From positions 192 to 64,191 of the forward strand of contig CAYUPH010000003.1 of NCBI GenBank assembly GCA_964446625.1: DNA of 64,000 bases. The letters are read 5' to 3'. Each line of letters opens with the position of its first letter. The first letter of the stretch is position 1. Positions 15,925 to 44,025 of the stretch are shown here, piece by piece. This stretch comes from an uncultured Candidatus Saccharibacteria bacterium (GTDB taxonomy: Bacteria > Patescibacteriota > Minisyncoccia > Phycocordibacterales > CAIRYW01). A program made the translations under genes and the position numbers. Below the pieces are notes generated by a model. That model saw only the letters and a program-made list of their open reading frames with translations, did no database searches and was not told the origin of the DNA.

Positions 15925-16325
15925 AGAGTATGCTTTGACCCATTAAATCTCCATTAGTTATTTTTGTAAAATTCCCCTGCCAAAACAAAATAGGGAAAGG
16001 GAATTGGAGTTTTATTTTATTTTTGTTTTTAAATTATTTTTTGTGCACGTTGAAAGTTTTATTTAAAACTCTGTGAGAAAGGTAAAGGGAAGAAGAGGTT
16101 TTGTCTTTGTAGAAGAAGGAGGCTTCCTCTATAGGAGTGTGTCGCACAATATATCTTTTTATCAATAATATACCTAGGCAAAGAGGCTCTTTTCAAACAA
16201 ACCACTTCCCTCGCGCCAAAATTTTTTTTGGGCTGGAGTTTAAGGATTGAGAAAATATTTTTATTTTTTTCTCTTCTCCCCTTTGATCTACAAATAATTT
16301 TTTTTCTAAATTTCTACAAATATTA

Positions 16326-16366
16326 AAAAACCGGATTTTTGCATTTTTCCGGTTTTTCTCTTTTTT
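16326..16366. terminator. intrinsic terminator
   Basis: aaaaccgg-atttttgcatttt-ccggttttt followed by ctctttttt. Confidence 0.55.
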
Positions 16367-16387
16367 AGTGTTTTTGCTTCTTTTTGG

Positions 16388-16645
16388 CTATTTGCTTATG
16401 TTTAGACTGTGAATGAATTCTTTTGCTTTACCAAAGGCTAGGACTAGGAACTTCCAGCTTACTTTGAGTGCATCGACGAGAAGTTCGTAAAGATACTTTA
16501 GTATCTGCCAGATATCTTTTACAACTTCGCTGTTTATAATGTCTCTGAGTGTGATATTAAAAACAAATTTTAAAATAACAAGCGCAAGGACAATAAGAAT
16601 TATTTTTTTTATAAATCCTCGGCTGTAGTTATGTGCTGTATCCAT
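16388..16645 (-). CDS. hypothetical small membrane protein
   Basis: 85 aa with one N-terminal TM helix (IILIVLALVILKFVF). Confidence 0.3.
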   Translation of the reverse strand: MDTAHNYSRGFIKKIILIVLALVILKFVFNITLRDIINSEVVKDIWQILKYLYELLVDALKVSWKFLVLAFGKAKEFIHSLNISK

Positions 16646-16660
16646 GATGTATAAATTATA

Positions 16661-17965
16661 TTATATAGATCCTAAATATACCATCGGATCAAGATATGCT
16701 TTTGGATCAGCAATCGGTATTGTTACTCCTTGACAGTTTTTTGTTTTCTCATTTGGAATCACCATAACCCTGGTTCCTTCGGTTGCAAGGACTGTGAGGT
16801 GTAGATGTGGACCAGTGACGTAGCCAGTTCGTCCAGAGAGAGCGATTTCTTGACCAATTTTTACACTGTCGCCGGGACTTACTTCTATTGAAGAAAGGTG
16901 TCCGTAGAGTGTTGAAAGTCCGTTAGAGTGCTTTATAAGGACCCATTTTCCATACGAGTAACAACCGCTTTTGAGGTCTGTGTTTCCTGTTGCCCATACA
17001 GTTCCGCTTTCGGATGCAAATACTTTTGTTCCATCTGTGGCTCTTAGGTCAATACCATTGTGTGAGCCTGATGTATACAATCTTTGAGCAGCAACTGTTG
17101 AACCGAAGTATTGGGTAATATAAACGTTTTGAAGTGGCCATGCGAGTACACCTTTTTTTGCAGTCGGAAGTTTGTTTGGATCAATTGCAATTTTTAGTTC
17201 AGATTCGTATTGAAAGAGTTCTTTTTCAAATTGCTCTTTTTGTTTTTTCTTTTCGGCAACTGTTTGTTGATAGAGCGCTTCTTGGCTTTTTGTCTGCGAC
17301 AGAAGAACATTTTTTTGCTTTGCAGTTTCTAGAACAGATTGCTTCTTCCCTGTTAATTCTTTTTTAAATGTAGATAGTTCTTCTTTTTTTTCTACCTCTT
17401 CACCTTGTTTTGTTGAGAGTTCTTCCTGGAGGTTTTGAAGTTCGTGAAGCCGCGAGCGAAGGGTTGTACCAAGCCTTGTTACAGACTCAATGTATGCAGA
17501 AAAAGTGCCTAAATCTTTGTAAACAAGAAGATTTTCAATAGCACTTTGTTCATCTGTCATTTGAATGTTTCGAAGAGTGCTTTTCAAATAACTTTCTGTG
17601 TTAGTTATGTCGCTTTCTTTTTGGTTTATTTCACTGCCTAAATTTTGGATAGTGAGATTAGCTTTTTCAATATTCTTTTCGGTAAGTGCAATATCTGTCT
17701 CGAGCTTTTTCTTTGCGAGGTTTAGTTCGTTGATTGCATTTTGAAGAGTTTTTTTATTGCTTCCTACAACGAGGAGTTCGCTTTCTAGTTTTTTAATTTC
17801 CGCTTCTAGGTTTTTGATTTGATCATTTTTACTGTCAATTTTGTCTTGAAGCTCGCTTACAGACGCAGCTTCGAGGACCGCATTTTTTCCAGAATAAAAA
17901 AGGCATCCAGCAAAGATTGCAAAAAGCAGAGAAAGACAAAGTATTTTTTTATTTTTCTGCAGCAT
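16661..17965 (-). CDS. M23-family peptidoglycan metalloendopeptidase with N-terminal coiled coil
   Basis: C-terminal LytM/M23 motifs (HNGIDLRA…, …GPHLHLTV). Long coiled-coil N-terminus like EnvC. Confidence 0.75.
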   Translation of the reverse strand: MLQKNKKILCLSLLFAIFAGCLFYSGKNAVLEAASVSELQDKIDSKNDQIKNLEAEIKKLESELLVVGSNKKTLQNAINELNLAKKKLETDIALTEKNIEKANLTIQNLGSEINQKESDITNTESYLKSTLRNIQMTDEQSAIENLLVYKDLGTFSAYIESVTRLGTTLRSRLHELQNLQEELSTKQGEEVEKKEELSTFKKELTGKKQSVLETAKQKNVLLSQTKSQEALYQQTVAEKKKQKEQFEKELFQYESELKIAIDPNKLPTAKKGVLAWPLQNVYITQYFGSTVAAQRLYTSGSHNGIDLRATDGTKVFASESGTVWATGNTDLKSGCYSYGKWVLIKHSNGLSTLYGHLSSIEVSPGDSVKIGQEIALSGRTGYVTGPHLHLTVLATEGTRVMVIPNEKTKNCQGVTIPIADPKAYLDPMVYLGSI

Positions 17966-19307
17966 GTCGGATTCTGTTTAAGGTTTCCGTCTTGCCGATT
18001 GTACTGCTTATCTGAAATGGATCAGGGGACTTTTCAAGTCCAGAAAGAGCATAGCGAATCGCCCAAAGGACAATCCCCCTTCCCTTTTCTGTTGCAAAAT
18101 CCCATAGCGCGTTTTTAATATTTTCGGATGTAAATTCTTCTTCGGGAATTTCGGAAAGTAAATTTTCGCTTTGCTTTAAAAGTCCGCGCAATTCTTCGTT
18201 AGACACCTCTTTTCCTTTTCGTAGTTTTTCTGGACAAAGAAGCTCACTAATACTTTGGACCGCAGGAGCGCTATAAAAGAAATCAAAATCTCCTGCTTCA
18301 AACAAAGTTTTTACATCTCCCCACTTTGAAATTCGTTCAAAAATAATTGGAATTAGTTTTTCTGTGATCTTGTTTTCTTTGTATTTTTCTGGAATTGCTG
18401 AAAGGACGCCATCTTTTTTCTCCTCTTCAGGGAGAAGCTTCAAATGTTCTTTGTTTATATAATCAAGTTTGTCTCCAGTAAAAACAGCAGGAAATTGCTG
18501 AACACGCTCCAGTGAAAACTTTTGGATAAGTTCTTCTTTTGTAAAGATTTCTTGCTCTCCTCCTGGATTCCAACCAAGGAGAGAAATCGCATTGAGGAGT
18601 GCATCCGGAAGATAACCTTTATCGAGGTATTCACGGACAGGAACCGCACCATTTCTCTTGCCTAGTTTCTTTTTGTTCTCTCCGAGAATTGTTGGAAAGT
18701 GTCCGTAAAATGGAATCGGCGCACCGAGGGCTTCCAAAATAATCATTTGGCGGGGCGTTGAAGTGACATGGTCTTCACCTCGAAGCACATGAGTAATTCC
18801 CATAAGGTAGTCATCAACAACGACAGTAAAGTGGTAAAGCGGATCTGTAATTGACCGTGCAATTATAAAATCAATGTTTCCTTTGTCGTCTTTAAAGGAG
18901 TCAGAAGAAATTTTAATTTCACCTTTTACAAGGTCCTTCCATACAATATCTTTTGCGGTATTTCTAATACGAATTACTTTACCAGTTCCCGATTGGTTTT
19001 CTTCTGCTTCGTAGGCTTTATCTTCTTTGATAAGTCTGCGAAGTTCTTTTTCATAAATGTCTTTCCTTTGCGATTGGTAGTAGGGACCTTCGTCAAAATC
19101 GAGACCGAGGACCTTTAGAACCTCCATCTGTTTTTTATCGGCTCCTTCTTTGTTTCGGGCTGTGTCAGTGTCCTCAAATCGAAGCACAATTTCACCCTCC
19201 TTTTGCCTTGCAAATAGGTAGTTAAATACAAACGTTCGTACATTACCAAAATGCCACTCTCCAGTAGGTGACGGCGGAAAACGGACTTTTATCTTTTTTG
19301 CCTCCAT
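17949..19307 (-). CDS. gltX: glutamyl-tRNA synthetase
   Basis: RFPPSPTGEWHFGNVRT (HIGH region of class I GluRS) and KLGKRNGA in the KMSKS region. Confidence 0.85.
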   Translation of the reverse strand: MEAKKIKVRFPPSPTGEWHFGNVRTFVFNYLFARQKEGEIVLRFEDTDTARNKEGADKKQMEVLKVLGLDFDEGPYYQSQRKDIYEKELRRLIKEDKAYEAEENQSGTGKVIRIRNTAKDIVWKDLVKGEIKISSDSFKDDKGNIDFIIARSITDPLYHFTVVVDDYLMGITHVLRGEDHVTSTPRQMIILEALGAPIPFYGHFPTILGENKKKLGKRNGAVPVREYLDKGYLPDALLNAISLLGWNPGGEQEIFTKEELIQKFSLERVQQFPAVFTGDKLDYINKEHLKLLPEEEKKDGVLSAIPEKYKENKITEKLIPIIFERISKWGDVKTLFEAGDFDFFYSAPAVQSISELLCPEKLRKGKEVSNEELRGLLKQSENLLSEIPEEEFTSENIKNALWDFATEKGRGIVLWAIRYALSGLEKSPDPFQISSTIGKTETLNRIRHAAEK

Positions 19308-27902: not shown

Positions 27903-28763
27903 CTACTCTTCCCTCCCTTCTCGTATTTTGTTTGAAAAGTCAGGGTCGTCTGCATAAAGAAGCGCTTCCCTGTTTATTTTGTACTTCTCGCGAAGCGCTT
28001 CTAAACTCTCACCGTTTCCAATAAGTCCAAGATTATACGCGAGTTCATCAGAATACGCAGGCATCAGGACCTTGAAACTAAACGGCACTTTGCCAGGAAC
28101 AAGCTCGTTTACATGCGAGACAATGTTCGTTGTGCAGGTGTTTGTAATAGTGTTATAGAACTCTGGGTCCCTCTGAAGTTTGTTCGCTCGTGTAAGCATG
28201 GAGACAAAAAGCTCGCGAGCTTTCTCTTTGCCAACATTTGTTTTGTAGAGGTACACGTCGTCTCCTCTGTAGTTTGAGCGAAGCTTAATTACATCTCGCT
28301 CGTCTGCGATTACATAGACAAGTTCATACTGCCGCAGGAGTCCCTTTACTACTCCAAAAGACTCCCCTTTTTCTTTTCGAATTTCTGCAGAAACCGCAAC
28401 ATGATTCCCGTTTTCAAAACCAAAAGAAATGAGCGTGTGCGCTGCGCCTGCTCCGTGACCCTTGAAAGGTTCTACCATAAACCATACAGAATCAATTTTA
28501 GACAGATCAAATTCTTTGTCATAGTAGCTCACATCATAGTCAGTTGTTGTTCTGTAGTTTATGTTTCGGATATTTTTTACAAGTACCTTGTCCCCTTCTT
28601 CAAAGATTGCTGTCGCTAAAACCGCCTGGTCGGGAGACCAGTCTCTTTCCATACTCGGGTGAATGAAAACTGCTAGAATCGCATAGACGACAAGGTAAAG
28701 TACAATCGGTGCAAGGAGTATGTAGGCAAGTATTTTAAAAGTTTTTTTAAGTATGGGTTTCAT
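27903..28763 (-). CDS. DUF4105 domain membrane-anchored protein
   Basis: N-terminal TM helix plus YNTITNTCTTNIV, matching the DUF4105 signature YN…NNCTT. Confidence 0.55.
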   Translation of the reverse strand: MKPILKKTFKILAYILLAPIVLYLVVYAILAVFIHPSMERDWSPDQAVLATAIFEEGDKVLVKNIRNINYRTTTDYDVSYYDKEFDLSKIDSVWFMVEPFKGHGAGAAHTLISFGFENGNHVAVSAEIRKEKGESFGVVKGLLRQYELVYVIADERDVIKLRSNYRGDDVYLYKTNVGKEKARELFVSMLTRANKLQRDPEFYNTITNTCTTNIVSHVNELVPGKVPFSFKVLMPAYSDELAYNLGLIGNGESLEALREKYKINREALLYADDPDFSNKIREGREE

Positions 28764-28769
28764 TTTTGT

Positions 28770-31424
28770 TTACTTCAAATCACTTAAATCTTTTTCTTTT
28801 GAAACTTTAAAGTTCTTAAATCCGATTGCCTTAAAGTGTTTATATGCCGACGCGATTTTTTGCTTCTCAGAAGGCCGCAGGTTTTCTAAGTCTTCAACAA
28901 ATTTAGTCTCCCGTACCAGATAAAGTATGTCTCCTTCCTCTTCTTTTACAACTATTGCCCAGTCAGGATTGTATCCACCAAGCGGGGTATCTATTTTAAA
29001 CCAACCAGGAAGCTTTGCGAACACTTTTACTCTAGTGCTATTTTGAAGATTTTGTGCAAATTCTTTTTCTTTTTCACTATCGAATGCTACATGAGAATAA
29101 ATAGACTTTTCAGTTTCTATTGTTTTATTTTCGTATGATTCAAATTCTTGCTCAAGGAGTTTCATTTCCCAATACTTTCCTGTTGGTACATACTGAAGCC
29201 CTTCATTTACAATGAAATCATGTTTACAACCTTCTATTATCACTATTGTACTTCGGATATACTCTTCTGGATTTTTTAAAAGAAGATCAAGATTTGATAC
29301 ACCAGAAAGTATTGAAAATACTGTTTGTTTTGTAAGACTTGTTTCTTGTGCAATTCTTTCAACCACGTTCCCAATGGAAGCTTTCCTATCTATAACCTCC
29401 CCGACACTTTGGTTTTGGTATACGGTTCGTATAGTACCGTTTTTATCCATTTCAAGTTGTACTTTATTTACCACAACAGTAGGTTTTGTGCTTGTGATAG
29501 TTTCGTTTATTTGAGAAATAATATTTTCTATCAACTTTCCTGAGTTAAGTAAAATATTATAGGTAGTCCTTTGCTTGATCTGGTTCCAGAGCGTTTCAAA
29601 ATCTGGGTGCATTTTTGTGAATTGTACAGTTACTAGCTTGTTTGCGTTTCCTGGTTTTGTCATAGTGTAGCCAGCTTCTGTATACTCTTGCTGAAGCGTA
29701 GAAGCAAATGACTCATAGCTTTCATTTGCAATCACTGTAAGGATGTTGATGTTTGATTCGTACACACGATTCCCTTCAGTATCTACTGGAAGCCGAAGCC
29801 CTCGACCAATTTTTTGACGCTTTGTAAAGTCATCATTTGTTTGGATAAGGGTGCAAATTTGGAATATGTTTGGATTATCCCAGCCTTCTTTGAGCGCTGA
29901 GTGCGAGAAAATAAATGCAAGTGGTTCCTCAAAAGAAAGTAGTTTTTCTTTATCTTTCATAATAAGGTCGTATGTAAGTTTTTCGCGCTTTGGTTCCGAG
30001 CTTACATCTGTAGTTTTTCTCCCTTCATGTTGTCGATCTTGAGAAAAATATCCATCATGCACACGAGTAATATCTACATTTTTAAATCGTTCATATCGAG
30101 TCTTCAAGCTTGCAAATTCTTCTTCAAAAATCTTTTTTATAATCGGATCTTCTCCCCGATAGTTTTTCACTTCATCAATGAAAAAAAGTGATAGTACTTT
30201 TATACGATCTCCGAACTGTTCTTGTTTTCGCATATGCGCTTTGATCGCCTCTCGTATTTGCGTACGAAAGAGTTCATCTCTATTTTCAGTATCATCAGCA
30301 GTTGAATAAGCTTTTCCATTAGAAAGCTCTACACCATCATGTTCACTTATTTCAGTCACCAAGAGATTAGCATATTTTTGATTCTTTTTTGATTTGTCAA
30401 AAAGGTCATCACCGCTTTTTATTTTTACTTCTCTGTGTTCATATTCTCCACTAGTGTTTTTCACCTCAAGTAGTACTTGTGCTGTGGGGTTTTCTCCTTT
30501 TTTGAAATTAATTTTCTTTACAGTAAAGACAAAATCGCTAGCACTTTGTACAGTCGCACCCCAGACTTCTACTTTTTTTACTAAACCTTTTGCATAGGCA
30601 TCCACAGGTGTAAGGCGGTATACGAGATTGTGCACTTCCTTATGTGTGGCACTATAGCGAAGCCGCACAAGGGGCTCTAAGAGCTTGAGTGCTTCTTTTG
30701 TTGCAGGACCTTCCATGTTTTGTGGCTCGTCCATGATCACGACCGGTTTAGTCTGTGCAATCATCTTTATATATGATTCTTCACCGTAAGTGTCATCACG
30801 ATCTGTCTGACGGAGAATAGCTGTTTCTGTAGTAAATGATTGTGTCGTCATGATCATGATTTGTATTTCTGGCGACTGTATGAAGTCTCGCACCAGGCGA
30901 AGTTTTGCGGAATCATAGGCAAAATATCCAAATGGCACATTGTCATAAATCTCACGAAAATGTTCTTTTGTCTGCTCTATTGTCTTTAGCACACCCTCAC
31001 GAATGGCCACGCTGGGAACAAGTATGATGAATTTTTTAAGTCCGTATTTCTGATTGAGTTCAAATATTGTGCGGAGATATACATATGTTTTTCCGGTCCC
31101 TGTTTCCATCTCTACAGTGAAATCTTTTAGGTTCTGTTGTTCTAAAAGTAGGTATCCACCATCTTCGAGCACCATAGATTCGCCACTCTGCGTAATGAGT
31201 CTTGAAACACTGCTTTCAATATTGTTTTGTTTTTGTATTTCTTGTAGATTCTCAATAATTCTGCTTTCATCAATATAAAGCTCGTTTGCTATGATTTGGC
31301 TTGGATTTTGAAGTTCAAATTCTATTTTATCTTTTTCAGTATTTTTTCCAGTATCAAAAAGATTAACAATCGCATTGATTGCGTCGAGTTGATAGTCTAG
31401 ATTTTTTGAGAATTTAAATTTCAT
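28770..31424 (-). CDS. res: Type III restriction endonuclease Res subunit
   Basis: SF2 helicase motifs (TGTGKTYVY Walker A; DEPQN motif II), C-terminal nuclease region, 884 aa. Start overlaps the stop of the preceding gene (TAATG). Confidence 0.85.
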   Translation of the reverse strand: MKFKFSKNLDYQLDAINAIVNLFDTGKNTEKDKIEFELQNPSQIIANELYIDESRIIENLQEIQKQNNIESSVSRLITQSGESMVLEDGGYLLLEQQNLKDFTVEMETGTGKTYVYLRTIFELNQKYGLKKFIILVPSVAIREGVLKTIEQTKEHFREIYDNVPFGYFAYDSAKLRLVRDFIQSPEIQIMIMTTQSFTTETAILRQTDRDDTYGEESYIKMIAQTKPVVIMDEPQNMEGPATKEALKLLEPLVRLRYSATHKEVHNLVYRLTPVDAYAKGLVKKVEVWGATVQSASDFVFTVKKINFKKGENPTAQVLLEVKNTSGEYEHREVKIKSGDDLFDKSKKNQKYANLLVTEISEHDGVELSNGKAYSTADDTENRDELFRTQIREAIKAHMRKQEQFGDRIKVLSLFFIDEVKNYRGEDPIIKKIFEEEFASLKTRYERFKNVDITRVHDGYFSQDRQHEGRKTTDVSSEPKREKLTYDLIMKDKEKLLSFEEPLAFIFSHSALKEGWDNPNIFQICTLIQTNDDFTKRQKIGRGLRLPVDTEGNRVYESNINILTVIANESYESFASTLQQEYTEAGYTMTKPGNANKLVTVQFTKMHPDFETLWNQIKQRTTYNILLNSGKLIENIISQINETITSTKPTVVVNKVQLEMDKNGTIRTVYQNQSVGEVIDRKASIGNVVERIAQETSLTKQTVFSILSGVSNLDLLLKNPEEYIRSTIVIIEGCKHDFIVNEGLQYVPTGKYWEMKLLEQEFESYENKTIETEKSIYSHVAFDSEKEKEFAQNLQNSTRVKVFAKLPGWFKIDTPLGGYNPDWAIVVKEEEGDILYLVRETKFVEDLENLRPSEKQKIASAYKHFKAIGFKNFKVSKEKDLSDLK

Positions 31425-32095
31425 TATTTTATTGAAATAATAATATTATTAATTTCATGTTCAAGTACTTTGATTATCTTTTCAATCAACTCGGTGTACA
31501 GGAAAGTTTTCTCCCTTGTTTGTTGTTCTCTTTGTTTTATCCCCGCTCCAGTTCTTGAAAAATTAAAATCAAATTCGTGCGCAATATTATTTCGGCTTCT
31601 AAATAGTGACCTGATTAGGTCCTTTTCTTCCTTAAATAATTCCTCGGGTAAACCAAATGCCTTTAGTATTTCTATAAGTTCTCCATAGTTTTGAAGACTG
31701 TGGTCTGTAAGAAGAGAGACTATCTTTTGACTTAACATATCATCTGATTTACCACTCATTAATATTTCAGACATGATTTTTAGATCAATACTATCGGTTG
31801 TATTACCAGATAATATCTCCTGTGTTTTTCCAATAAAATATTTATGAGATTTCTTGTTATTTTTTCTAACTAATTCAAGCCCATCTTCTACGATCTGTTT
31901 CATAAAAGAGTCTAAACCTGCACATCCTAAAACAATAATAGCTCGTAATAAATCTTGTTGTTGATCTGTTGCTGGACCCCTTTTGATTTTAAGATCGTCA
32001 TAGATATCAAAAAGAGAATCAATTGAATTATGAGTAGCGTCTTTTATCTTCCTACACCTGTCTAATACTTTTACCTTTTTTTCTTTACTCGCCAT
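31424..32095 (-). CDS. HEPN-like putative RNase (Abi-like), inserted in the Type III R-M operon
   Basis: All-alpha 223-aa protein with RSRNNIAHE (R-x4/x6-H) at residues 166-173 in a C-terminal helix. 3-nt gap to mod and 1-nt overlap with res. Confidence 0.45.
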   Translation of the reverse strand: MASKEKKVKVLDRCRKIKDATHNSIDSLFDIYDDLKIKRGPATDQQQDLLRAIIVLGCAGLDSFMKQIVEDGLELVRKNNKKSHKYFIGKTQEILSGNTTDSIDLKIMSEILMSGKSDDMLSQKIVSLLTDHSLQNYGELIEILKAFGLPEELFKEEKDLIRSLFRSRNNIAHEFDFNFSRTGAGIKQREQQTREKTFLYTELIEKIIKVLEHEINNIIISIK

Positions 32096-32098
32096 AGA

Positions 32099-33940
32099 TT
32101 AAACGACCTTCAAATTAATATTCCTTTCAATATTAACTTTTGTTGTATCATCGAGAGCATTATCAAAACATACAAAAATATCACCTGCCGTTAATTTTAG
32201 CTCTTCTACATCTTCTTTTGTAACCTTGTTTGAAAAACTAACAACGAGCTTTCTCTCACCTTCTGTGACAACCCAAGGCTTCAAACTACTCTTTTCCTGT
32301 TCGACTTTTGCATTTAGACCAAAACCTTCTTTTTCGAGGATTTCATACACAACAAACTTTTCATCGTAACTATCCACAAGCGGTTTCTCAATGAATAATT
32401 TTGATTGCTTTTTTAGCTCCTCAATATCATCTTCACTTGTGAGATCATTCCATTTTCGATAGTTTGAAGATGAAAGCTGAAAAGATTTAAATCCTGTATC
32501 ACCTTTTCCTATTTTTTCCCCAGCACGACGAATTCTTTCACGCGAAATTTCAGCAATATTTTTGTATCCTGCTTTGTAAGATTCACTTTTTTCGTCAGTT
32601 TCCTCCGGAAGTTGAACACAAATCCATTTTCTATTTCCCCCATCTTCTGCGTTCAAATCCATCACCGCGTGAGCTGTTGTTCCAGAACCAGCAAAAAAAT
32701 CTAGCACAATATCATCAGTATCATTATCTACTAGAGAGAAGAGGTATTTCAAAAGACGTACATTTTTTGGACTTTCAAAAATAGTGTTTTGGAATAAATC
32801 ATTGAGCTCTGTTGTACCCTCATTATTTATGCCCACTAGTTCACGCGGAATTACAGAAGAAGGAGCTCCTGTACCATCACCAAGATATTTTTTAATATAG
32901 ATATTCCAATTTGCTTGGTCACCTTTTTCATTAACTAGTGGTCCCGTTTTTGTTTGCTTAAAAACAACCATATTTTTTGCCAATGCTTCTTGAAAAGTAG
33001 GCTCTATAAATCTAAACAAATATCCTTCTTTTGGTTTTACCTTTTCTCCATCTGGACATTCAATAAAATATTTTTGATTTGTTCCCCAAGAAGAATTTTT
33101 CCATGCAAAATCTTTTTCTCGATAAATACCTACCGCGTCCTCTTTATTGTACTGTTTTTTCGCTTCCTCAGAGAGAGGTGCGTAGAAAGTTTCCGTCTCT
33201 AGTATATTTTTTGCATAACATATTACATATTGATGAGATTGGTTTACAAAATTACTTCTAATACCACCCCCTGTACTTGAGTGCCAAATAAGATTTGAGA
33301 TAAAATTCTCCTCACCAAAAATTTCATCCATTATCAATCGTAAATTCGCAACTTCATTATCATCAATAGATACAAAAATAACTCCGTCATCTTTTAGAAG
33401 ATTTCTTGCGAGAAAAAGTCGTGGGTACATCATTGTGAGCCAGTCACTGTGATATCGTCCATTTTTTTCGGTATTCGCGGTCATTTTGATACCACCTTTT
33501 GTTTGCCCTGTTTGTTCATAGTAGTCAGCAACATCTTGAGAAAAGTTATCTTTATATACAAAATCCTTACCTGTGTTATAAGGTGGATCAATATAAATCA
33601 TTTTGATCTTTTCTCGATAATGTTTTTGGAGAAGCTTTAAAACTTCCAGGTTATCACCTTCTATAAAAAGATTTTCTGTTTCGTTCCAGTTTTTTGATTC
33701 TTCAGGTTGCGGGATAAGGGTACCTGTAGAGGGTACACGAATTGCTTTAAATGAATTATTTCGTCCTGCCCAGCTGAGTCCGTATTTCTCAATATTCTCG
33801 TCCAGTTTGTTGTTGCCAAGTAAGGATTTTAGCTTTTCGATATCAAATTTGTCTTCTGAGAAGCATTCTGGGAAAATGTCCTTTAAAATCATAATCTTTT
33901 TGTCCAGGGGGTTGTTTGTTGTTGTGTTTACTTTTTCCAT
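32099..33940 (-). CDS. mod: Type III R-M N6-adenine DNA methyltransferase Mod
   Basis: DPPY catalytic motif (IYIDPPYNTGKDF) and AdoMet motif VLDFFAGSGTTAHAV. 613 aa. Confidence 0.85.
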   Translation of the reverse strand: MEKVNTTTNNPLDKKIMILKDIFPECFSEDKFDIEKLKSLLGNNKLDENIEKYGLSWAGRNNSFKAIRVPSTGTLIPQPEESKNWNETENLFIEGDNLEVLKLLQKHYREKIKMIYIDPPYNTGKDFVYKDNFSQDVADYYEQTGQTKGGIKMTANTEKNGRYHSDWLTMMYPRLFLARNLLKDDGVIFVSIDDNEVANLRLIMDEIFGEENFISNLIWHSSTGGGIRSNFVNQSHQYVICYAKNILETETFYAPLSEEAKKQYNKEDAVGIYREKDFAWKNSSWGTNQKYFIECPDGEKVKPKEGYLFRFIEPTFQEALAKNMVVFKQTKTGPLVNEKGDQANWNIYIKKYLGDGTGAPSSVIPRELVGINNEGTTELNDLFQNTIFESPKNVRLLKYLFSLVDNDTDDIVLDFFAGSGTTAHAVMDLNAEDGGNRKWICVQLPEETDEKSESYKAGYKNIAEISRERIRRAGEKIGKGDTGFKSFQLSSSNYRKWNDLTSEDDIEELKKQSKLFIEKPLVDSYDEKFVVYEILEKEGFGLNAKVEQEKSSLKPWVVTEGERKLVVSFSNKVTKEDVEELKLTAGDIFVCFDNALDDTTKVNIERNINLKVV

Positions 33941-38023: not shown

Positions 38024-39715
38024 CTACACCATGGCTTCAATACCTGGTTTTGGTGTGGCATGGAGCGCTTCGAGCTCAATATAGAAAGTAGAACCTTTTT
38101 CCTTTCCAGGAGATTCTGCCCAGATTTTGCCACGCTGAGCTTCGATAATCTTCTTGGCTACATAGAGACCGAGTCCGGTTCCCATAATATTTGCTTTTCC
38201 TGCTTCAGGAGCACGGATAAATTTCTCAAAAAGTCGAGGCATTACTTCTGCTGGAATTCCAATACCTGTGTCTTTAATTGAGATAAGAAGGTTATCTCGG
38301 TGGTTTCGCTCTATGTGAACATGAATACCTCCTTGCTTTGTATATTTTGTAGCGTTGTCGATTAGGTTTGAAATTACTTGTTTTATTTTTCCTTGATCTG
38401 CGTGAACCATGTACTCTTTTGTATTGTCAAAATCAAAAGAAAGTTTAAGGCTTGCCATTTCAACAGTTGGCATAAGTTCGTGGATTACGGATTCTGTAAG
38501 TTCTTTTAGGTTGAAATCAGAGAAATCGTACTTCATTCTACCTTGCTCAATTCGTGACACATCGAGGTAGTCTCCTACGAGAACGACGAGAGCTTGAGTT
38601 GATTTATACATTGTCTCTACCGCTTCCCTCACCTCAGGAGACAAATTTCCAAAGTCCCCTTCTAGAATAAGTGATGCGTAGCCTTTAACAGCAGTAAGGG
38701 GTCCTCGAAGCTGGTGGCTTGCAAGAGAAATGAATTCTGATTTTTGTTGGTCGAGCTCGCGCAGTCTTGCGTTTGTTTTCTCGAGGTTGGTAGTTAAATC
38801 CTGCAATTGCTCTCGTGTTTTAATCTCCTTTGCAACACTTTTAATGAGAAAGTACCCAAAAGAGATTGATAGTAAAAGATTAAAAGTGTTTAATATTTGG
38901 CTTGCTGTATCTTGGATAAAAAAGAATTGAAATGCCACGATTAAGGAAAGTGTGATAACAAGAACTTGTGCTCCAAATAATTTTATATTAAATATTTTGT
39001 ATCTTACAATCAAAAAAGCTATAACACCTATGAAAATTAAAATACCAAAAAGCCCGTATTGCTCATATGTATAATTGCCTGTTAAGTCAGAAATAAATCC
39101 AACTATATAAAAGGATCCAATAAAACTAACAAGGCCAAGAGAAAGTACTTTTGTTTGAAACTTCTCCTTTGCTTCTGCTTTTCTATAATGAAAAACTAGG
39201 AAACCGGCTGTTAAAACCATTAAAATTATTTTAAGTACGGAAACATAGTCAGCATATAAGTTTTTTTCAACAGCAATACACTCTTCAATGTTATAGGCAG
39301 TTATATTGAATTGTGAGTTGGCAAGCAGAAAAACTGGTGCGTATATAATTACTAAAAAAGCTTTGTAACGTTTCTCTAGGTCTTTATTTGTTGAGAAGAC
39401 ATATACAAAATAAAAGACAAGAAGAAAAATAAGAACACTTACAGTTTCAATAGGAGCCCAAGCTGCCATTAGCTTGCTTCCACTTATATATTGAAACCAG
39501 ATATTTAAATCAAGGAAAGACCAGATTGAGAAAGCGAGTGAAAGACTGAAAATGATTTTTGCGAGAAGAGATTTGCGGTCCTTTAAAAAAATAAAAAAAC
39601 CTAAAAGCAAGGTAAACACAGCTGTGCCAATATGCGAGTATAATAAAATTTCTTTCAAACCTCCAACATATTCTGCGCAATACTTTATGTTTTCTGCTAA
39701 GTTGTATTCAAGCAT
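38024..39715 (-). CDS. sensor histidine kinase with polytopic N-terminal domain (orphan)
   Basis: About 8 TM helices, HisKA H-box SHQLRGPL and HATPase_c G-boxes. No response regulator adjacent. Confidence 0.8.
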   Translation of the reverse strand: MLEYNLAENIKYCAEYVGGLKEILLYSHIGTAVFTLLLGFFIFLKDRKSLLAKIIFSLSLAFSIWSFLDLNIWFQYISGSKLMAAWAPIETVSVLIFLLVFYFVYVFSTNKDLEKRYKAFLVIIYAPVFLLANSQFNITAYNIEECIAVEKNLYADYVSVLKIILMVLTAGFLVFHYRKAEAKEKFQTKVLSLGLVSFIGSFYIVGFISDLTGNYTYEQYGLFGILIFIGVIAFLIVRYKIFNIKLFGAQVLVITLSLIVAFQFFFIQDTASQILNTFNLLLSISFGYFLIKSVAKEIKTREQLQDLTTNLEKTNARLRELDQQKSEFISLASHQLRGPLTAVKGYASLILEGDFGNLSPEVREAVETMYKSTQALVVLVGDYLDVSRIEQGRMKYDFSDFNLKELTESVIHELMPTVEMASLKLSFDFDNTKEYMVHADQGKIKQVISNLIDNATKYTKQGGIHVHIERNHRDNLLISIKDTGIGIPAEVMPRLFEKFIRAPEAGKANIMGTGLGLYVAKKIIEAQRGKIWAESPGKEKGSTFYIELEALHATPKPGIEAMV

Positions 39716-39722
39716 ACTACAA

Positions 39723-40496
39723 TTATATTACAACATTTAGCTTTTCAATATGTCTACCTGTCTTCTCATTATCATACGAAAGCCAATGCATATGTTTTTC
39801 AACTTCAAGGGGTAAGAGTGGGACGATTAGAGGCTTAACACCAAAAAATTTTTCTATAGCTAGTATGCTCGGAAGAACTTTAGCGTTGATAAACTCTCCT
39901 TCTTCTCGGTCTTCTAGTAAGTAGTTCTCAAATAATATTCCGTGGTATATAAATAGTGAAAGGAAATAAAAATAGTAATACCCTCCTTTTAGTCTTGTTA
40001 AGTTAAACCAACTTGTGATGTCTTTTATCTCCATTTTGGAATAGAGACCCTCTTCTTTCAGGAGATTTAGATGGAATTCTCTCAACGGCTCACCCCAAAG
40101 TGTATTAATCTCTGAAAATAGACTTCCTTCATACTCATTAAAATCAACAATTCTTTGAGAGTGAGTTTCGTATACTCCATTCTTGTTTCTTTTATAAAGA
40201 TAAAGTTTACAAAGATGATATTTGTCTGGGTTTCGTGAGACAAATTTATCATCATACTCTAAAAAGCAGGGTTTTAGGTCAATACTTGTGGCTAAGTCAA
40301 TAAAGTATTTACATTCAGTATTAGGAGTGGGAATACATCTACTAAAAAAACCATATTTCTGATCTATTTCAAGAAAAGTGGGAAAATCGTTACCAAAAAA
40401 GTCAATAATTTTTTTTCTTAGAATTGGGTCGTTTTTCCTTTTCTCCAATTCTTTTTGTGCTTCTTCAATCGTTATGTATATGTCCTCTACTTTCAT
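39723..40496 (-). CDS. hypothetical protein (257 aa)
   Basis: Intact ORF 7 nt downstream of the kinase. No motif. Confidence 0.35.
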   Translation of the reverse strand: MKVEDIYITIEEAQKELEKRKNDPILRKKIIDFFGNDFPTFLEIDQKYGFFSRCIPTPNTECKYFIDLATSIDLKPCFLEYDDKFVSRNPDKYHLCKLYLYKRNKNGVYETHSQRIVDFNEYEGSLFSEINTLWGEPLREFHLNLLKEEGLYSKMEIKDITSWFNLTRLKGGYYYFYFLSLFIYHGILFENYLLEDREEGEFINAKVLPSILAIEKFFGVKPLIVPLLPLEVEKHMHWLSYDNEKTGRHIEKLNVVI

Positions 40497-40500
40497 TTTG

Positions 40501-40866
40501 TTATTCAGTACACTGATCTTTTATGTTTATTATACTTCCATAACTATCTTTATTTTTGCATGTGATAATTACACAATTTCCTTCCCCTATTAAACCATCA
40601 CAGGTGAGAGGGGGGCAGTTATTATCTTCACAGAGTGGTGGTTTAGCAGCTGTTCTAAGTATGACTTTATAAAAAGTAAATTCATTGTCACAGTCTTCTT
40701 CCTCGCAGACTGCTTTAAAGCAACTTTCTTCTTGCGGATTACATTCAATACTAGAAAATAAGTAATAGTCTTTTTTTATCATAAATGTGTAGTATGAAAG
40801 ACCGCACACACAAATCGTTACAATAACAGTGATAAATATAAGAAAATTTGATTGTTTTTCTATCAT
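40501..40866 (-). CDS. Cys-rich small secreted/anchored protein
   Basis: N-terminal TM/signal anchor plus 12 Cys in 95 residues (CxxxxC, CEEEDC, CPPLTC, CKNK patterns). Confidence 0.35.
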   Translation of the reverse strand: MIEKQSNFLIFITVIVTICVCGLSYYTFMIKKDYYLFSSIECNPQEESCFKAVCEEEDCDNEFTFYKVILRTAAKPPLCEDNNCPPLTCDGLIGEGNCVIITCKNKDSYGSIINIKDQCTE

Positions 40867-40868
40867 TT

Positions 40869-41795
40869 CTAGCTTAAAAATGTGGTTCCTATAATCATAA
40901 TAATAATAGCAAATGCTTTTTTCGCAATAGCTCCTTTTGAAATATCTTCTTCAGTAATCTTTGGAAACAGAATGGTAATGAGAATACCTAGTAGGAAAAC
41001 AAAAACAGGCTGGGCTCCATTTATCACAACATTTGCCAAGGCTAGTGTTGTAAGGAGTGAGGCGTATACAGCAAACGCATTTCCGGTGGCGGTTAAAAGC
41101 TCACTTCCAATGTTCAGAGCAAGAATACTTTTGCCACTTTCTTTTATTGATGACAAGAAGTCTTTTCGATAGTTTGATTTAAAAACAAAAAGACAAAGGC
41201 CAAATAAGAGAATGCCAAAATGTTCCCAAAAGATTGAGCTCCAAAATGTTCCTTCCTGTAAGGTTCCGTATTTGAAGAGGCTGCTGTATCCTGCAAAGAG
41301 AAATGAAGAAATAAGAGCAAAAAATATTGCTTTCTTTTTGAAACGAATTTTTCCTTCTAGATTCTTTTCAGTAGAAAGAATGAGGGCTCCAAAAACAATT
41401 AAGAATGAAGCAATGGTCTGATTTTTGGTTAGTGATTCTCCAAGAAGAAAGAAACCTTGTATATAAGCAAAGACTGAAATCATTTGAAAGAAAGGCATAA
41501 TAACTGATGTCTCATCTTCATTTAAGGCAAAGATGTAAAAGAAAATTGCTAGTGCATTTAGTAGACCAGAGAGTATAAGTATTAGTTTTTCAGTATTACT
41601 TATACTTAAAATTACTTCAGAATTTAAATAAAAAACTACAGGAATAACTATGATAGAAAAAAGAGTGGAATACAGCATAATGGATCCCACTCCCTTGCCA
41701 GAGTGTTTGAAATATTTATCAATAAGATACTTGTCAGCGTGATTGACGATACTCCAAAGTAGTGGGGCTGAAACTGCAAAAATTAACCAAGTCAT
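40869..41795 (-). CDS. EamA/DMT-superfamily transporter
   Basis: About 10 TM helices arranged as two EamA-like halves. Confidence 0.65.
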   Translation of the reverse strand: MTWLIFAVSAPLLWSIVNHADKYLIDKYFKHSGKGVGSIMLYSTLFSIIVIPVVFYLNSEVILSISNTEKLILILSGLLNALAIFFYIFALNEDETSVIMPFFQMISVFAYIQGFFLLGESLTKNQTIASFLIVFGALILSTEKNLEGKIRFKKKAIFFALISSFLFAGYSSLFKYGTLQEGTFWSSIFWEHFGILLFGLCLFVFKSNYRKDFLSSIKESGKSILALNIGSELLTATGNAFAVYASLLTTLALANVVINGAQPVFVFLLGILITILFPKITEEDISKGAIAKKAFAIIIMIIGTTFLS

Positions 41796-41842
41796 TTATT
41801 TTGTTTATAAGTTTAAGTGTAACATCTTTTGGATTAAAACAA

Positions 41843-42877
41843 CTAGGGTTTACTTTCTAACGCAAGACTTATAAGTTCATCTACAAGATCTTCTGAATTA
41901 ATACCACATTGTTGCCATAGTTTTGGGAACATACTAGAGGGAGTAAATCCCGGAATAGTATTAATTTCATTTATATAAATCTTGTTGTCTGATGTTAAAA
42001 AGAAATCCACACGAGCGAAATCTCTGCACTCAAGTACCTCAAATGTCTTTATAGCCAACTCTTTGATTCTTTGCTCAATTGTTTTATTAATTGGTGCTGG
42101 GATTAGTAACTCACTTCCCTTTTTATCAATATATTTTGCATCATAAGAGTAAAAATCATGGCGAGATATGATTTCGCCACAGATTGATGCTTTAGGGTTC
42201 TTGGTTCCAATAATCGCGCACTCAATTTCTCGTCCAGGAACATACTTTTCTATTAGTATTTTTTTATCAAACGAGAAAGCATGTGAGAGAGAAGTTTTTA
42301 AATCTGCCTCACAAGCTACTTTTGTTATACCCACTGACGATCCTAAATTTGCAGGTTTTACAAAAAAAGGAACACCTAGTTTCTTTTTTATATCTTTAAA
42401 ATTGATTAACCCTAAAGCCTCTTTCCTAAAAACTATAAAATCCGCGATGGGTAACTGACAATCCCGGAGAAGTCTTTTCATTATATCCTTATCCATACCA
42501 ACAGCTGAACCGATCACATCTGCTCCTACATGAGGAATATTAATTGTTTTGAAGAAACCCTGGATAGTCCCATCCTCTCCGTTTGGTCCATGAAGAATAG
42601 GAAAGGCAATGTCTGGTTTTTGCTTTTCTATTATACTTATTATTCCAGATAATTTCGATTTATTCCTTCTTGTTATGACAACAGATTCAAGAAGATGAAA
42701 TTCTTCTTTTGAAAAGAGTGCCCACTCACCATTTTTACTAATTCCAATAAGTGTAACTTTATATTTTTTAGTGTTAAGAGAATTAACTACAAATTTCGCC
42801 GATTTTACAGATACTTCGTGTTCTGCGGACTTGCCCCCGAACAATATTAGTACATGGATTTTGCTTTTTTTCTTCAT
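41843..42877 (-). CDS. ddl: D-alanine--D-alanine ligase
   Basis: KIHVLILFGGKSAEHEVSV N-terminus and an ATP-grasp C-terminal region. Start moved to MKKKSK. Confidence 0.85.
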   Translation of the reverse strand: MKKKSKIHVLILFGGKSAEHEVSVKSAKFVVNSLNTKKYKVTLIGISKNGEWALFSKEEFHLLESVVITRRNKSKLSGIISIIEKQKPDIAFPILHGPNGEDGTIQGFFKTINIPHVGADVIGSAVGMDKDIMKRLLRDCQLPIADFIVFRKEALGLINFKDIKKKLGVPFFVKPANLGSSVGITKVACEADLKTSLSHAFSFDKKILIEKYVPGREIECAIIGTKNPKASICGEIISRHDFYSYDAKYIDKKGSELLIPAPINKTIEQRIKELAIKTFEVLECRDFARVDFFLTSDNKIYINEINTIPGFTPSSMFPKLWQQCGINSEDLVDELISLALESKP

Positions 42878-42933
42878 ATACAGAGTTAAGTATAACAATT
42901 ACTGATTTTATTGCTAAACAAAAAGAAGAGCTT

Positions 42934-44025
42934 TTACAGCCCTTCTTTTTGGAGTTCTTCCACGATTTTCTTTTCCTGCTTTGAGAGTTTTGTAGGGATT
43001 TTGATTTTGACTCGTATGAAGAGGTCCCCTCGTCTTCCACCTGTTGGTACTCCCTTTCCTTTTACGCGAAGCACTTCTCCGAAAGATACTCCGTTTGGAA
43101 TTACGATAGTGAGCGGACCATCGAGTGTTTCAATTTGGTATTCAGCTCCTAGAATTGCATCTGTTAGTTTGACATCGAGATCCATCACGAGGTTTGAGCC
43201 CTCTTTGTGGAAGACTTTGTCTTTTTGAACATGAATTTTTACATAAAGGTCACCAGGCGCTCCGGCTGTAATGGCTTCTCCTTTGCCAGTAAAGCGAATC
43301 ATTTCTCCGTTTTCAATTCCAGCTGGAACGTCAATTCGAATATCCTCCGCGGCTTCATGAACACCTTTTCCTTTACATTCTTTGCACTTTTCTTTTGGTA
43401 CTGCTCCTACTCCGTGGCAGTCTGTACAAGTTCGAGTGGCAGCAATTTGACCAAAGATTGAGCGCTTCATTTCACGGATTGTTCCTTTGCCACCACAAGT
43501 TGCACATGAGACCATGTCTGACCCAGGTTCGGCCCGGTTTCCTTTACACCTTTCGCACACGACATTTTTATTGAGAAGAACATGCTTTTCAACACCAAAA
43601 ACAGACTCTTTGAATGTGACTTCAATATCAATAGAAATGTCCCTACCCTTTTTTTGACTTTGTCTCCTACCACCTCCTCCAAAGAAGTCTCCAAATATGT
43701 CTCCTAGGTCTTCAAAGTTGAATTCGAAACCGCCTCCTGCGCCTTGGCGAAAGCCTCCGAAGTCGAATCCTTCAAAACCTCCGAATCCACCAGCGCCAGC
43801 TCCTCCACCTGCACCAGAAAAACCGTGTCCGTATGTGTCATACTGACTTCTTTTTGCAGAGTCCGAGAGTACGCTGTACGCCTCGCTTGCTTCTTTAAAC
43901 TTCTCTTCGTTTCCCTTTCCTTTGTCTGGGTGATATTGGTGTGCCAACTTCCTGAACGCTTTTTTGATATCGTCCGCAGAAGCACTTTTTGAAACTCCGA
44001 GAATTTCGTAATAATCTTTTTTCAT
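42934..44025 (-). CDS. dnaJ: chaperone DnaJ
   Basis: J-domain with HPD, G/F-rich region, and four CxxCxGxG repeats. Confidence 0.9.

Follow-up and report, generated by a model that had tools for sequence, protein, structure and literature searches.

A HEPN-family gene as cargo at the mod/res junction of a Type III restriction-modification operon from Candidatus Saccharibacteria

What is the role of a third gene that lies between the two genes of a Type III restriction-modification (R-M) operon? This question is raised by a 64,000-nucleotide (nt) stretch of contig CAYUPH010000003.1 (assembly GCA_964446625.1, positions 192 to 64,191) from an uncultured Candidatus Saccharibacteria bacterium, which is referred to in its entirety as the window. 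On the minus strand of the window the methyltransferase gene mod is followed by a gene encoding a protein of 223 amino acids (aa), here called X, and then by the restriction gene res. The initial annotation had proposed that X is a HEPN ribonuclease (RNase) and that the three genes could form the core of an undescribed three-component system. Analysis of its sequence and structural model indicated that X is a genuine HEPN protein with an intact active-site signature. Comparison with related operons showed that it is one of many interchangeable cargo genes at the mod/res position. The features of the operon are listed below; L075 is the locus of its closest R-M relative.

32099..33940, minus strand: mod, Type III N6-adenine DNA methyltransferase, 613-aa open reading frame (ORF), assigned from the ORF, Pfam and PADLOC.
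32722..33283, minus strand: central block of mod, presumed target-recognition domain (TRD), with no blastn similarity to L075.
32096..32098, minus strand: spacer TCT, the upstream edge of the cargo slot, read from the sequence; homology to L075 stops at 32108.
31424..32095, minus strand: X, a 223-aa solo HEPN protein of the RiboL-PSP-HEPN family and a predicted metal-independent endoribonuclease, the cargo in the mod/res slot.
31577..31594, minus strand: codons of the HEPN Rx4H motif, R168-N-N-I-A-H173 (cga aat aat att gcg cac).
28770..31424, minus strand: res, Type III restriction subunit of 884 aa, with a superfamily 2 (SF2) helicase and a C-terminal PD-ExK endonuclease.

The three ORFs, their coordinates and both junctions were confirmed in the sequence. 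The TAA stop codon of mod is separated from the ATG of X by a 3-nt spacer (TCT), and the TAA of X shares base 31424 with the ATG of res (TAATG), a 1-nt overlap that physically couples res translation to X termination. The two-gene Type III arrangement has mod directly followed by res; here a 672-nt gene intervenes. No minus-strand terminator-like sites were found within the three genes, and promoter-like consensus matches inside the mod-X-res unit were not above chance. The proportion of guanine plus cytosine (GC) was 0.32-0.38 across 29-34 kb and about 0.41 on either side, in keeping with an acquired island. The same layout with the same X protein was present in 11 contigs from several metagenomes.

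Judged by their sequences, Mod and Res are Type III subunits, and the R-M genes are intact and functional-looking. Mod matched Pfam N6_N4_Mtase (3.9e-35) and PADLOC MTase_III (2.7e-184, aligned over residues 1-609), and its translation contains DPPY and FAGSGTT motifs. Public gene calls begin mod 16 codons downstream, giving a 597-aa protein (window 33892-33940); the 613-aa form, however, is covered from its first residue onwards by the PADLOC profile for Type III methyltransferases. Res matched Pfam ResIII (6.6e-16), RE_endonuc (5.7e-35) and DEAD as well as PADLOC REase_III (1e-226), and TGTGKT, MDEPQ and PD...ETK motifs were evident in its translation. The NCBIfam Type III endonuclease model scored 318 bits on Res, under its equivalog cutoff of 564.

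The assignment of X to the HEPN proteins was upheld by a profile search, which placed it in Pfam family PF18735 (RiboL-PSP-HEPN) with 44.2 bits (gathering cutoff 28.4; E = 2.7e-11) and an alignment over profile positions 9-191 of 191. The AlphaFold model of X from a deep alignment, which was used instead of one from a two-sequence alignment (predicted local distance difference test, pLDDT, 53), had a pLDDT of 95.5 and a predicted template modelling score of 0.90. As had been predicted, it was all-alpha, with eight helices in a single helical domain. An exhaustive HMMER search returned 619 family representatives at 50% clustering, nearly all of them standalone proteins of 215-255 aa. Among the 137-151 representatives compared, R51, S133, Q135, R168, H173 and D176 were invariant (R168 and H173 in 151), and D48, D62, K66, N169, E174, R189 and R192 were at least 90% conserved. 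The sequence RSRNNIAHE, which had first drawn attention to X, occupies residues 166-174, and the expectation that its R...H motif would be conserved in homologs was borne out, with N169 at 99%, I171 at 93% and E174 at 97%. The HEPN motif is R168-N169-x3-H173 (Rx4H); R166, earlier suggested as a target for mutagenesis, is not conserved, and the residues to mutate are R168 and H173. Both hallmarks of the HEPN superfamily, an all-alpha helical bundle core and an Rx4-6H motif with a polar residue after the arginine, are therefore found in X, for which RNase activity and a role in defence are predicted from homology.

Pfam matches for X were inspected to E values of up to 1. Within this range there was no match to Abi_2, one of the families to which X had been likened; there was also no match to a P-loop family, and X has no fused ABC- or Rad50-like ATPase domain. 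No match to X was found in PADLOC 2023 or NCBIfam, and no sequence match in the PDB. HepT-like or NTP_transf Pfam matches were absent from both X and the neighbouring genes. The likeness of X to HepT is structural only, and membership of the HepT-MNT type VII toxin-antitoxin (TA) systems was rejected, there being no HepT-like match and no adjacent MNT nucleotidyltransferase. PD-T4-2, PD-T4-5, PD-T7-3 and ApeA, where PF18735 is listed in a review, were also rejected, because X matched none of their PADLOC models. Searches for X yielded 0 matches on phages, one weak match on plasmids and four IMG/VR contigs; X also weakly matches phrog_13503, a phage family of unknown function.

The position of X was then compared with that of other genes in related operons. 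A metagenome scan with the Res alignment gave 80 loci, and the C-terminus of mod and the N-terminus of res could both be placed in 60. Canonical abutment of mod and res, with a median gap of 2.5 nt, was observed in 32 of these 60 operons; the other 28 carried inserts of 189-4863 nt (median 1.3 kb), of which 25 contained co-directional ORFs of at least 90 aa. In this lineage mod directly abuts res in about half of the operons, and the cargo of the others comes from numerous defence, abortive-infection and TA families. None of the 28 inserts contained a member of the X family, and 45 of 54 cargo proteins were singletons by BLASTP. The Pfam families represented in the slot included AAA_21/AAA_15, SMC_N, RhuM, YhcG/DUF1016, AIPR, HepT with MNT, PIN_12, Schlafen-AlbA_2, HerA, HATPase_c_3, PIF1, Dcm with Vsr, DUF1828/1829, GHKL, NYN and Trypsin_2. 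AbiEii-like ATPases were among the cargo, and the slot also holds complete TA pairs, such as HepT/MNT.

Comparison with L075 revealed how sharply this cargo is delimited. The Res proteins of the two loci are 89% identical and the Mod proteins 56%. At the DNA level, the 84% identity in res begins at 31429, 5 nt ahead of the start codon, and ends exactly with the stop codon at 28770, and homology in mod runs to 32108, 9 nt short of the mod stop codon; the cargo between these points is unrelated. Within mod, blastn similarity covered 33791-33283 (83%) and 32722-32108 (72%), with nothing matching between them. This central block is presumed to be the TRD because of the known architecture of Type III Mod proteins, and its divergence would fit TRD replacement with a changed specificity. 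Elsewhere in the lineage, the size or presence of cargo differed between Res pairs that were 84-97% identical. These results showed that the mod/res junction is a hypervariable cargo slot in the R-M lineage of the window, with clean replacement of the cargo. A description of such a slot was not found in the searchable literature, which omits much subscription content. The cargo of the operons with the most similar Res proteins was as follows.

L075:4137-4996 (Res 89% identical to that of the window): a 195-aa protein and an 88-aa protein with a hydrophobic C-terminus.
L076:3645-4990 (L076/L077, Res 70%): a Zn-ribbon protein, a 137-aa unknown protein and a 217-aa transmembrane protein.
L078, 2933-4296 (Res 64%): a trypsin-like protease and a 221-aa transmembrane protein related to that of L076.
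L079, 1932-4898 (Res 60%): a GHKL-like 666-aa protein, a KTSC protein and an NYN RNase.

The 195-aa protein of L075 gave a weak, sub-cutoff match to RnlA/RNase-LS-like HEPN proteins and carries a YRHEPLH (Rx4H) motif, and the two proteins may represent another HEPN toxin and its partner. The same layout was seen on a Chryseobacterium plasmid, with mod-PDDEXK-res (L160, NZ_CP044508.1 47405-53907), and on a Rhizobium plasmid, with mod-DUF262-res; plasmids of Bacillus cereus and Enterococcus faecium had canonical mod/res without an insert. A toxin gene of the AbiEii/AbiGii family comes immediately after the Chryseobacterium operon, which makes this a further layered cluster of defence genes, here in an organism that has been cultured.

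Relatives of X itself were found both outside and inside R-M operons. The closest (49% identity, locus L001) stands alone between trmD and rpoB, without R-M genes, on a contig that spans only 8.8 kb. Recurrence of X homologs between mod and res elsewhere was seen at three loci. P0003, on a 1.36-kb contig (L070), is a 41%-identical homolog between mod and res with no extra gene and spacers of 8-9 nt; its flanks are 62-63% (Mod C-terminus) and 55-64% (Res N-terminus) identical to those of the window. Two further loci, L046 from Omnitrophica and the gammaproteobacterial L043, have an X-family HEPN gene between mod and res genes that belong to another Type III lineage. The Res protein of the window is only about 22% identical to those of L043 and L046, whose Mod proteins are 57% identical to each other, and in both loci a gene of about 100 aa encoding a beta-flower (Bflower) protein precedes the HEPN gene inside mod/res. 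A metagenome scan for the X subclade found no further members, and X-family cargo in the R-M lineage of the window was seen only in the window species and L070.

Three side observations concern these and related loci. The mod-Bflower-HEPN-res genes of L046 (L046:769-11381) are flanked by genes for a TraG/VirD4-like coupling protein, a Fic protein and a caspase-like peptidase, a neighbourhood that has the look of a conjugative element carrying a defence cluster. The Res protein of L043 is split at L043:10671-13391 into a 673-aa helicase ORF and a 213-aa endonuclease-domain ORF, by a frameshift or pseudogene formation or through an assembly error. At L048:1223-1336, from Paceibacterota, a 38-aa stretch that follows a Bflower-HEPN pair shares 50% identity with the Res N-terminus of L046 and may be the remnant of a decayed res gene.

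The genome context of the wider family was sampled in 63 species-representative loci from the X-family subset that shares the sequence EQDLLRAM, a sample biased to one part of the family. Neighbour clustering revealed a gene of about 100-120 aa directly upstream of the HEPN gene on the same strand, often with a 4-nt overlap, and its product is a PF21784 "4-fold beta-flower" (Bflower) protein. With a family-specific hidden Markov model (HMM), Bflower was found to adjoin HEPN in 45 of the 63 loci; the other 18 had no detectable adjacent Bflower, some of them being at contig ends. No fusions of the two proteins were found, and the idea of a Bflower-HEPN fusion was discarded. X matched the HMM of the cassette's HEPN family at 2.5e-57 with all invariant residues aligned, and many of the Bflower-linked HEPN relatives score under the Pfam PF18735 cutoff. 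A six-frame translation of the whole window contained no Bflower match or remnant, and Bflower was also absent from both X-subclade loci, L001 and L070. The C-terminus of Bflower is a (GYP)n repeat tail, PYRGYPGYPGYPGYPGYPGYPG, seen for example at L010:9699-10013 and L011:1922-2236, which produces weak Pfam "Collagen" matches. Examples of the cassette, which was present in many phyla (L007-L069), are given below.

L009:9651-10675: Bflower-HEPN cassette.
L010:9699-10705: Bflower-HEPN cassette.
L023:9624-10651: Bflower-HEPN cassette.

A Bflower-linked HEPN protein and a Bflower protein were compared with PADLOC 2023, and neither had a match. The beta-flower fold has been described without a function (PMC10584680), and Cernunnos, a beta-flower cassette in Vibrio, has anti-phage activity. 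The Bflower-HEPN pair, a description of which was not found in the searchable literature (which omits much subscription content), is a candidate for an uncharacterised defence or TA pair.

Taken together, these comparisons did not sustain the suggestion of an undescribed three-component core: related operons carry unrelated inserts, the closest R-M relative has other cargo, X has a solo gene as its nearest relative, and members of the wider HEPN family usually come with a beta-flower gene and not with R-M genes. The accompanying suggestion of a combined restriction and RNA-targeting defence is a reasonable reading, but the concept is not new. In 2013, HEPN proteins of at least 16 clades were proposed to provide second-line defence from within R-M operons, PrrC being the experimental paradigm (PMC3710099). 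The locus is therefore a new example of a known layered-defence idea and not a new kind of system.

Among known systems, PrrC in the Type Ic EcoprrI locus (hsdMSR) is likewise a HEPN RNase encoded within an R-M operon that provides a latent second line of defence (PMC3710099, PMC12707154). It differs from X in that it has an N-terminal ABC-ATPase domain, belongs to another HEPN clade and lies in a Type I locus, whereas X is a bare 223-aa RiboL-PSP HEPN protein in a Type III operon. The solo AbiJ, Abi2/AbiD/F, ApeA, AbiU2, EC042_2821 and other genes of Anantharaman et al. 2013 resemble X in being solo HEPN genes beside R-M genes, in a multi-pronged DNA and RNA defence (PMC3710099). In that paper, the "Ribo L-PSP-HEPN" row names an L-PSP fusion and a ParB operon but nothing linked to R-M, the Type III mod/res position was not found, and the "type III" passages are CRISPR-related only. 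X shares the full-profile match and the Rx4H motif with the PF18735 family; it has no L-PSP fusion, and it is not in the two-gene cassette with a beta-flower protein in which PF18735-type relatives mostly occur. AbiD and AbiF, distant relatives of the RiboL-PSP-HEPN proteins according to PMC3710099, are single HEPN abortive-infection (Abi) proteins of type III TA systems that stay silent until infection (PMC13064643). These have an upstream antitoxin non-coding RNA (ncRNA), whereas X has no Abi_2 match and no sign of such an RNA upstream.

A preprint by Silas et al. deals with Ronin (hsdMS with RonA) and the Type III enzyme EcoR22I, both of them R-M or R-M-derived loci which cause cell death upon sensing anti-restriction proteins; EcoR22I shows that programmed cell death can be coupled to an enzyme of Type III. 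EcoR22I needs mod and res only and RonA is a 61-aa membrane toxin; neither has a HEPN gene between mod and res. The slot resembles the P2/P4 hotspots (PMC9122126) and chromosomal integron cassettes (preprint) in its fixed position, conserved flanks and fast-exchanging anti-phage cargo. Unlike those sites, it is flanked by the genes of two subunits of one R-M enzyme, and its cargo is translationally coupled within the operon. The mod/res junctions, at 3-10 nt, are too short for att-type sites.

The best explanation, to which we give somewhat better than even weight, is that X would be a catalytically intact HEPN endoribonuclease carried as cargo in the hypervariable slot of a Type III R-M operon that was acquired horizontally. 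Recombination may exchange the cassettes, with the conserved mod and res ends as homology arms. X would be made together with the R-M enzyme and remain latent; when a phage escaped restriction, X would cleave RNA and bring about cell arrest or death, an abortive-infection-type second layer. It most likely would sense infection alone, in the manner of solo Abi HEPN proteins, without obligatory contact with Mod or Res. Autonomous sensing was slightly favoured over guarding by Mod and Res because the closest relative is solo and outside an R-M locus, because the slot accepts self-contained modules, including TA pairs, and because Bflower is kept in L043 and L046; the 18 of 63 family loci without a detectable adjacent Bflower, some of them at contig ends, also speak for autonomy. 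Several points tell against this explanation. The RNase activity and defence role across the X family are predictions from homology; the window lacks Bflower, the partner that the family usually has, so that the explanation offers no means by which X is kept inactive; and the 8.8-kb contig of L001 leaves room for R-M genes elsewhere in that genome. Furthermore, mod-X-res without Bflower also occurs in the diverged L070 (X 41% identical), a hint that the R-M context may replace the partner, and a shared hotspot position is no proof of a defence function.

That hint favours a PrrC-like arrangement, possible though on balance doubtful, in which Mod2Res would bind and silence X until it was set free, either because the complex was lost or by an anti-restriction protein (an Ocr-like DNA mimic or some other inhibitor of Type III enzymes); X would then cleave tRNA, mRNA or rRNA and abort the infection, the R-M enzyme having replaced Bflower as regulator. 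The location of X inside the operon, translationally coupled to res, favours stoichiometric co-production, and Bflower, found in 45 of the 63 family loci, is missing from both X-subclade members that lie within R-M operons (window and L070). Retention of mod-X-res across divergence (X 41%, Mod 62-63%, Res 55-64%) appears to be long-term, and the HEPN family has also reached this junction in a second Type III lineage that is unrelated to the first (L043, L046). PrrC/EcoprrI provides a precedent, R-M guards are an accepted category (PMC3710099, PMC12707154) and EcoR22I has been tied to Ocr-triggered death. On the other hand, X is a bare HEPN domain with family-specific helices and without the ABC-ATPase regulatory domain of PrrC, L043 and L046 retain Bflower despite being embedded in R-M operons, and the closest relative of X lies outside any R-M locus. 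The X family was found in 0 of 28 other cargo-bearing operons, and the slot hosts many unrelated self-sufficient modules, so that position alone does not equal physical coupling. It is rather unlikely, in our assessment, that mod/res is a dedicated defence-cassette exchange site at which X shed Bflower because Mod-Res acts as its sensor or inhibitor. If this were true, mod-X-res would be a three-component restriction and abortive-infection machine, the Type III counterpart of PrrC/EcoprrI, with an uncharacterised HEPN family.

The lack of Bflower bears also on the quite improbable idea that X is the toxin of an addiction or stabilisation module, neutralised by an RNA or a small peptide, which would keep the R-M island by post-segregational killing without sensing phage. 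In the related AbiF/AbiD group the proteins act as toxins of type III TA systems and have an ncRNA upstream (PMC13064643), and most members of the X family do have a tightly coupled small upstream partner. Here, however, there is no space for a partner, with 3 nt on the upstream side of X and an overlap of 1 nt on its downstream side, and a Bflower homolog is absent throughout the 64-kb window. An AbiF-like RNA antitoxin was not supported, there being no tandem repeats or Rfam matches and no excess of synonymous-site conservation in the 3' end of mod (0.45, compared with 0.48 in X and in res). Coupling of res translation to X, and the existence of non-catalytic HEPN proteins such as MtlR (PMC3710099), would agree with X being an RNA-binding regulator that tunes res expression, for example by delaying Res in a new host as C proteins do. 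We consider this very improbable: the R168, N169 and H173 signature and other polar residues are kept family-wide, whereas non-catalytic HEPN proteins typically lose the motif, and 32 of 60 related operons work without an insert, while others carry nucleases or ATPases in its place. There is equally little reason to regard X as an inert hitch-hiker, captured by recombination into a hotspot and now non-functional or unexpressed. Cargo turnover is rapid and X-family cargo is rare, being confined to the window species and L070, but the ORF is intact with all family-invariant residues, the same protein recurs in 11 contigs of several metagenomes, and the 41%-identical ortholog in the same position points to long-term maintenance.

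As HEPN endoribonuclease cargo, X would provide a concrete Type III case of the layering of R-M with an RNase, an idea that is experimentally well supported only for Type I (PrrC). The cargo slot and the Bflower-HEPN cassette are more useful leads than X itself. The slot lineage is widespread, rich in Candidate Phyla Radiation (CPR)/Patescibacteria and also present on plasmids of cultured bacteria, and about half of its operons use the slot; several of the cargo proteins have no family assignment, which makes the junction a practical place to mine for defence genes. The cassette occurs across many phyla and is absent from PADLOC, and the related Cernunnos is active against phage.

Beyond the operon, no tRNA or tmRNA genes were detected in the window by ARAGORN. 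An Lnb_N-domain gene (286 aa, window 27903-28763) on the same strand begins 6 nt past the res stop codon. No terminator-like site separates it from res and co-transcription is possible; it appears to lie outside the mobile unit, since the homology to L075 ends exactly at the res stop. Other low-GC stretches (0.31-0.35, compared with about 0.41) were noted at window positions 16001-18000 and 39001-43000, the latter with a gene for an EamA transporter and two ORFs, of 257 and 121 aa, for which no Pfam family was recorded.

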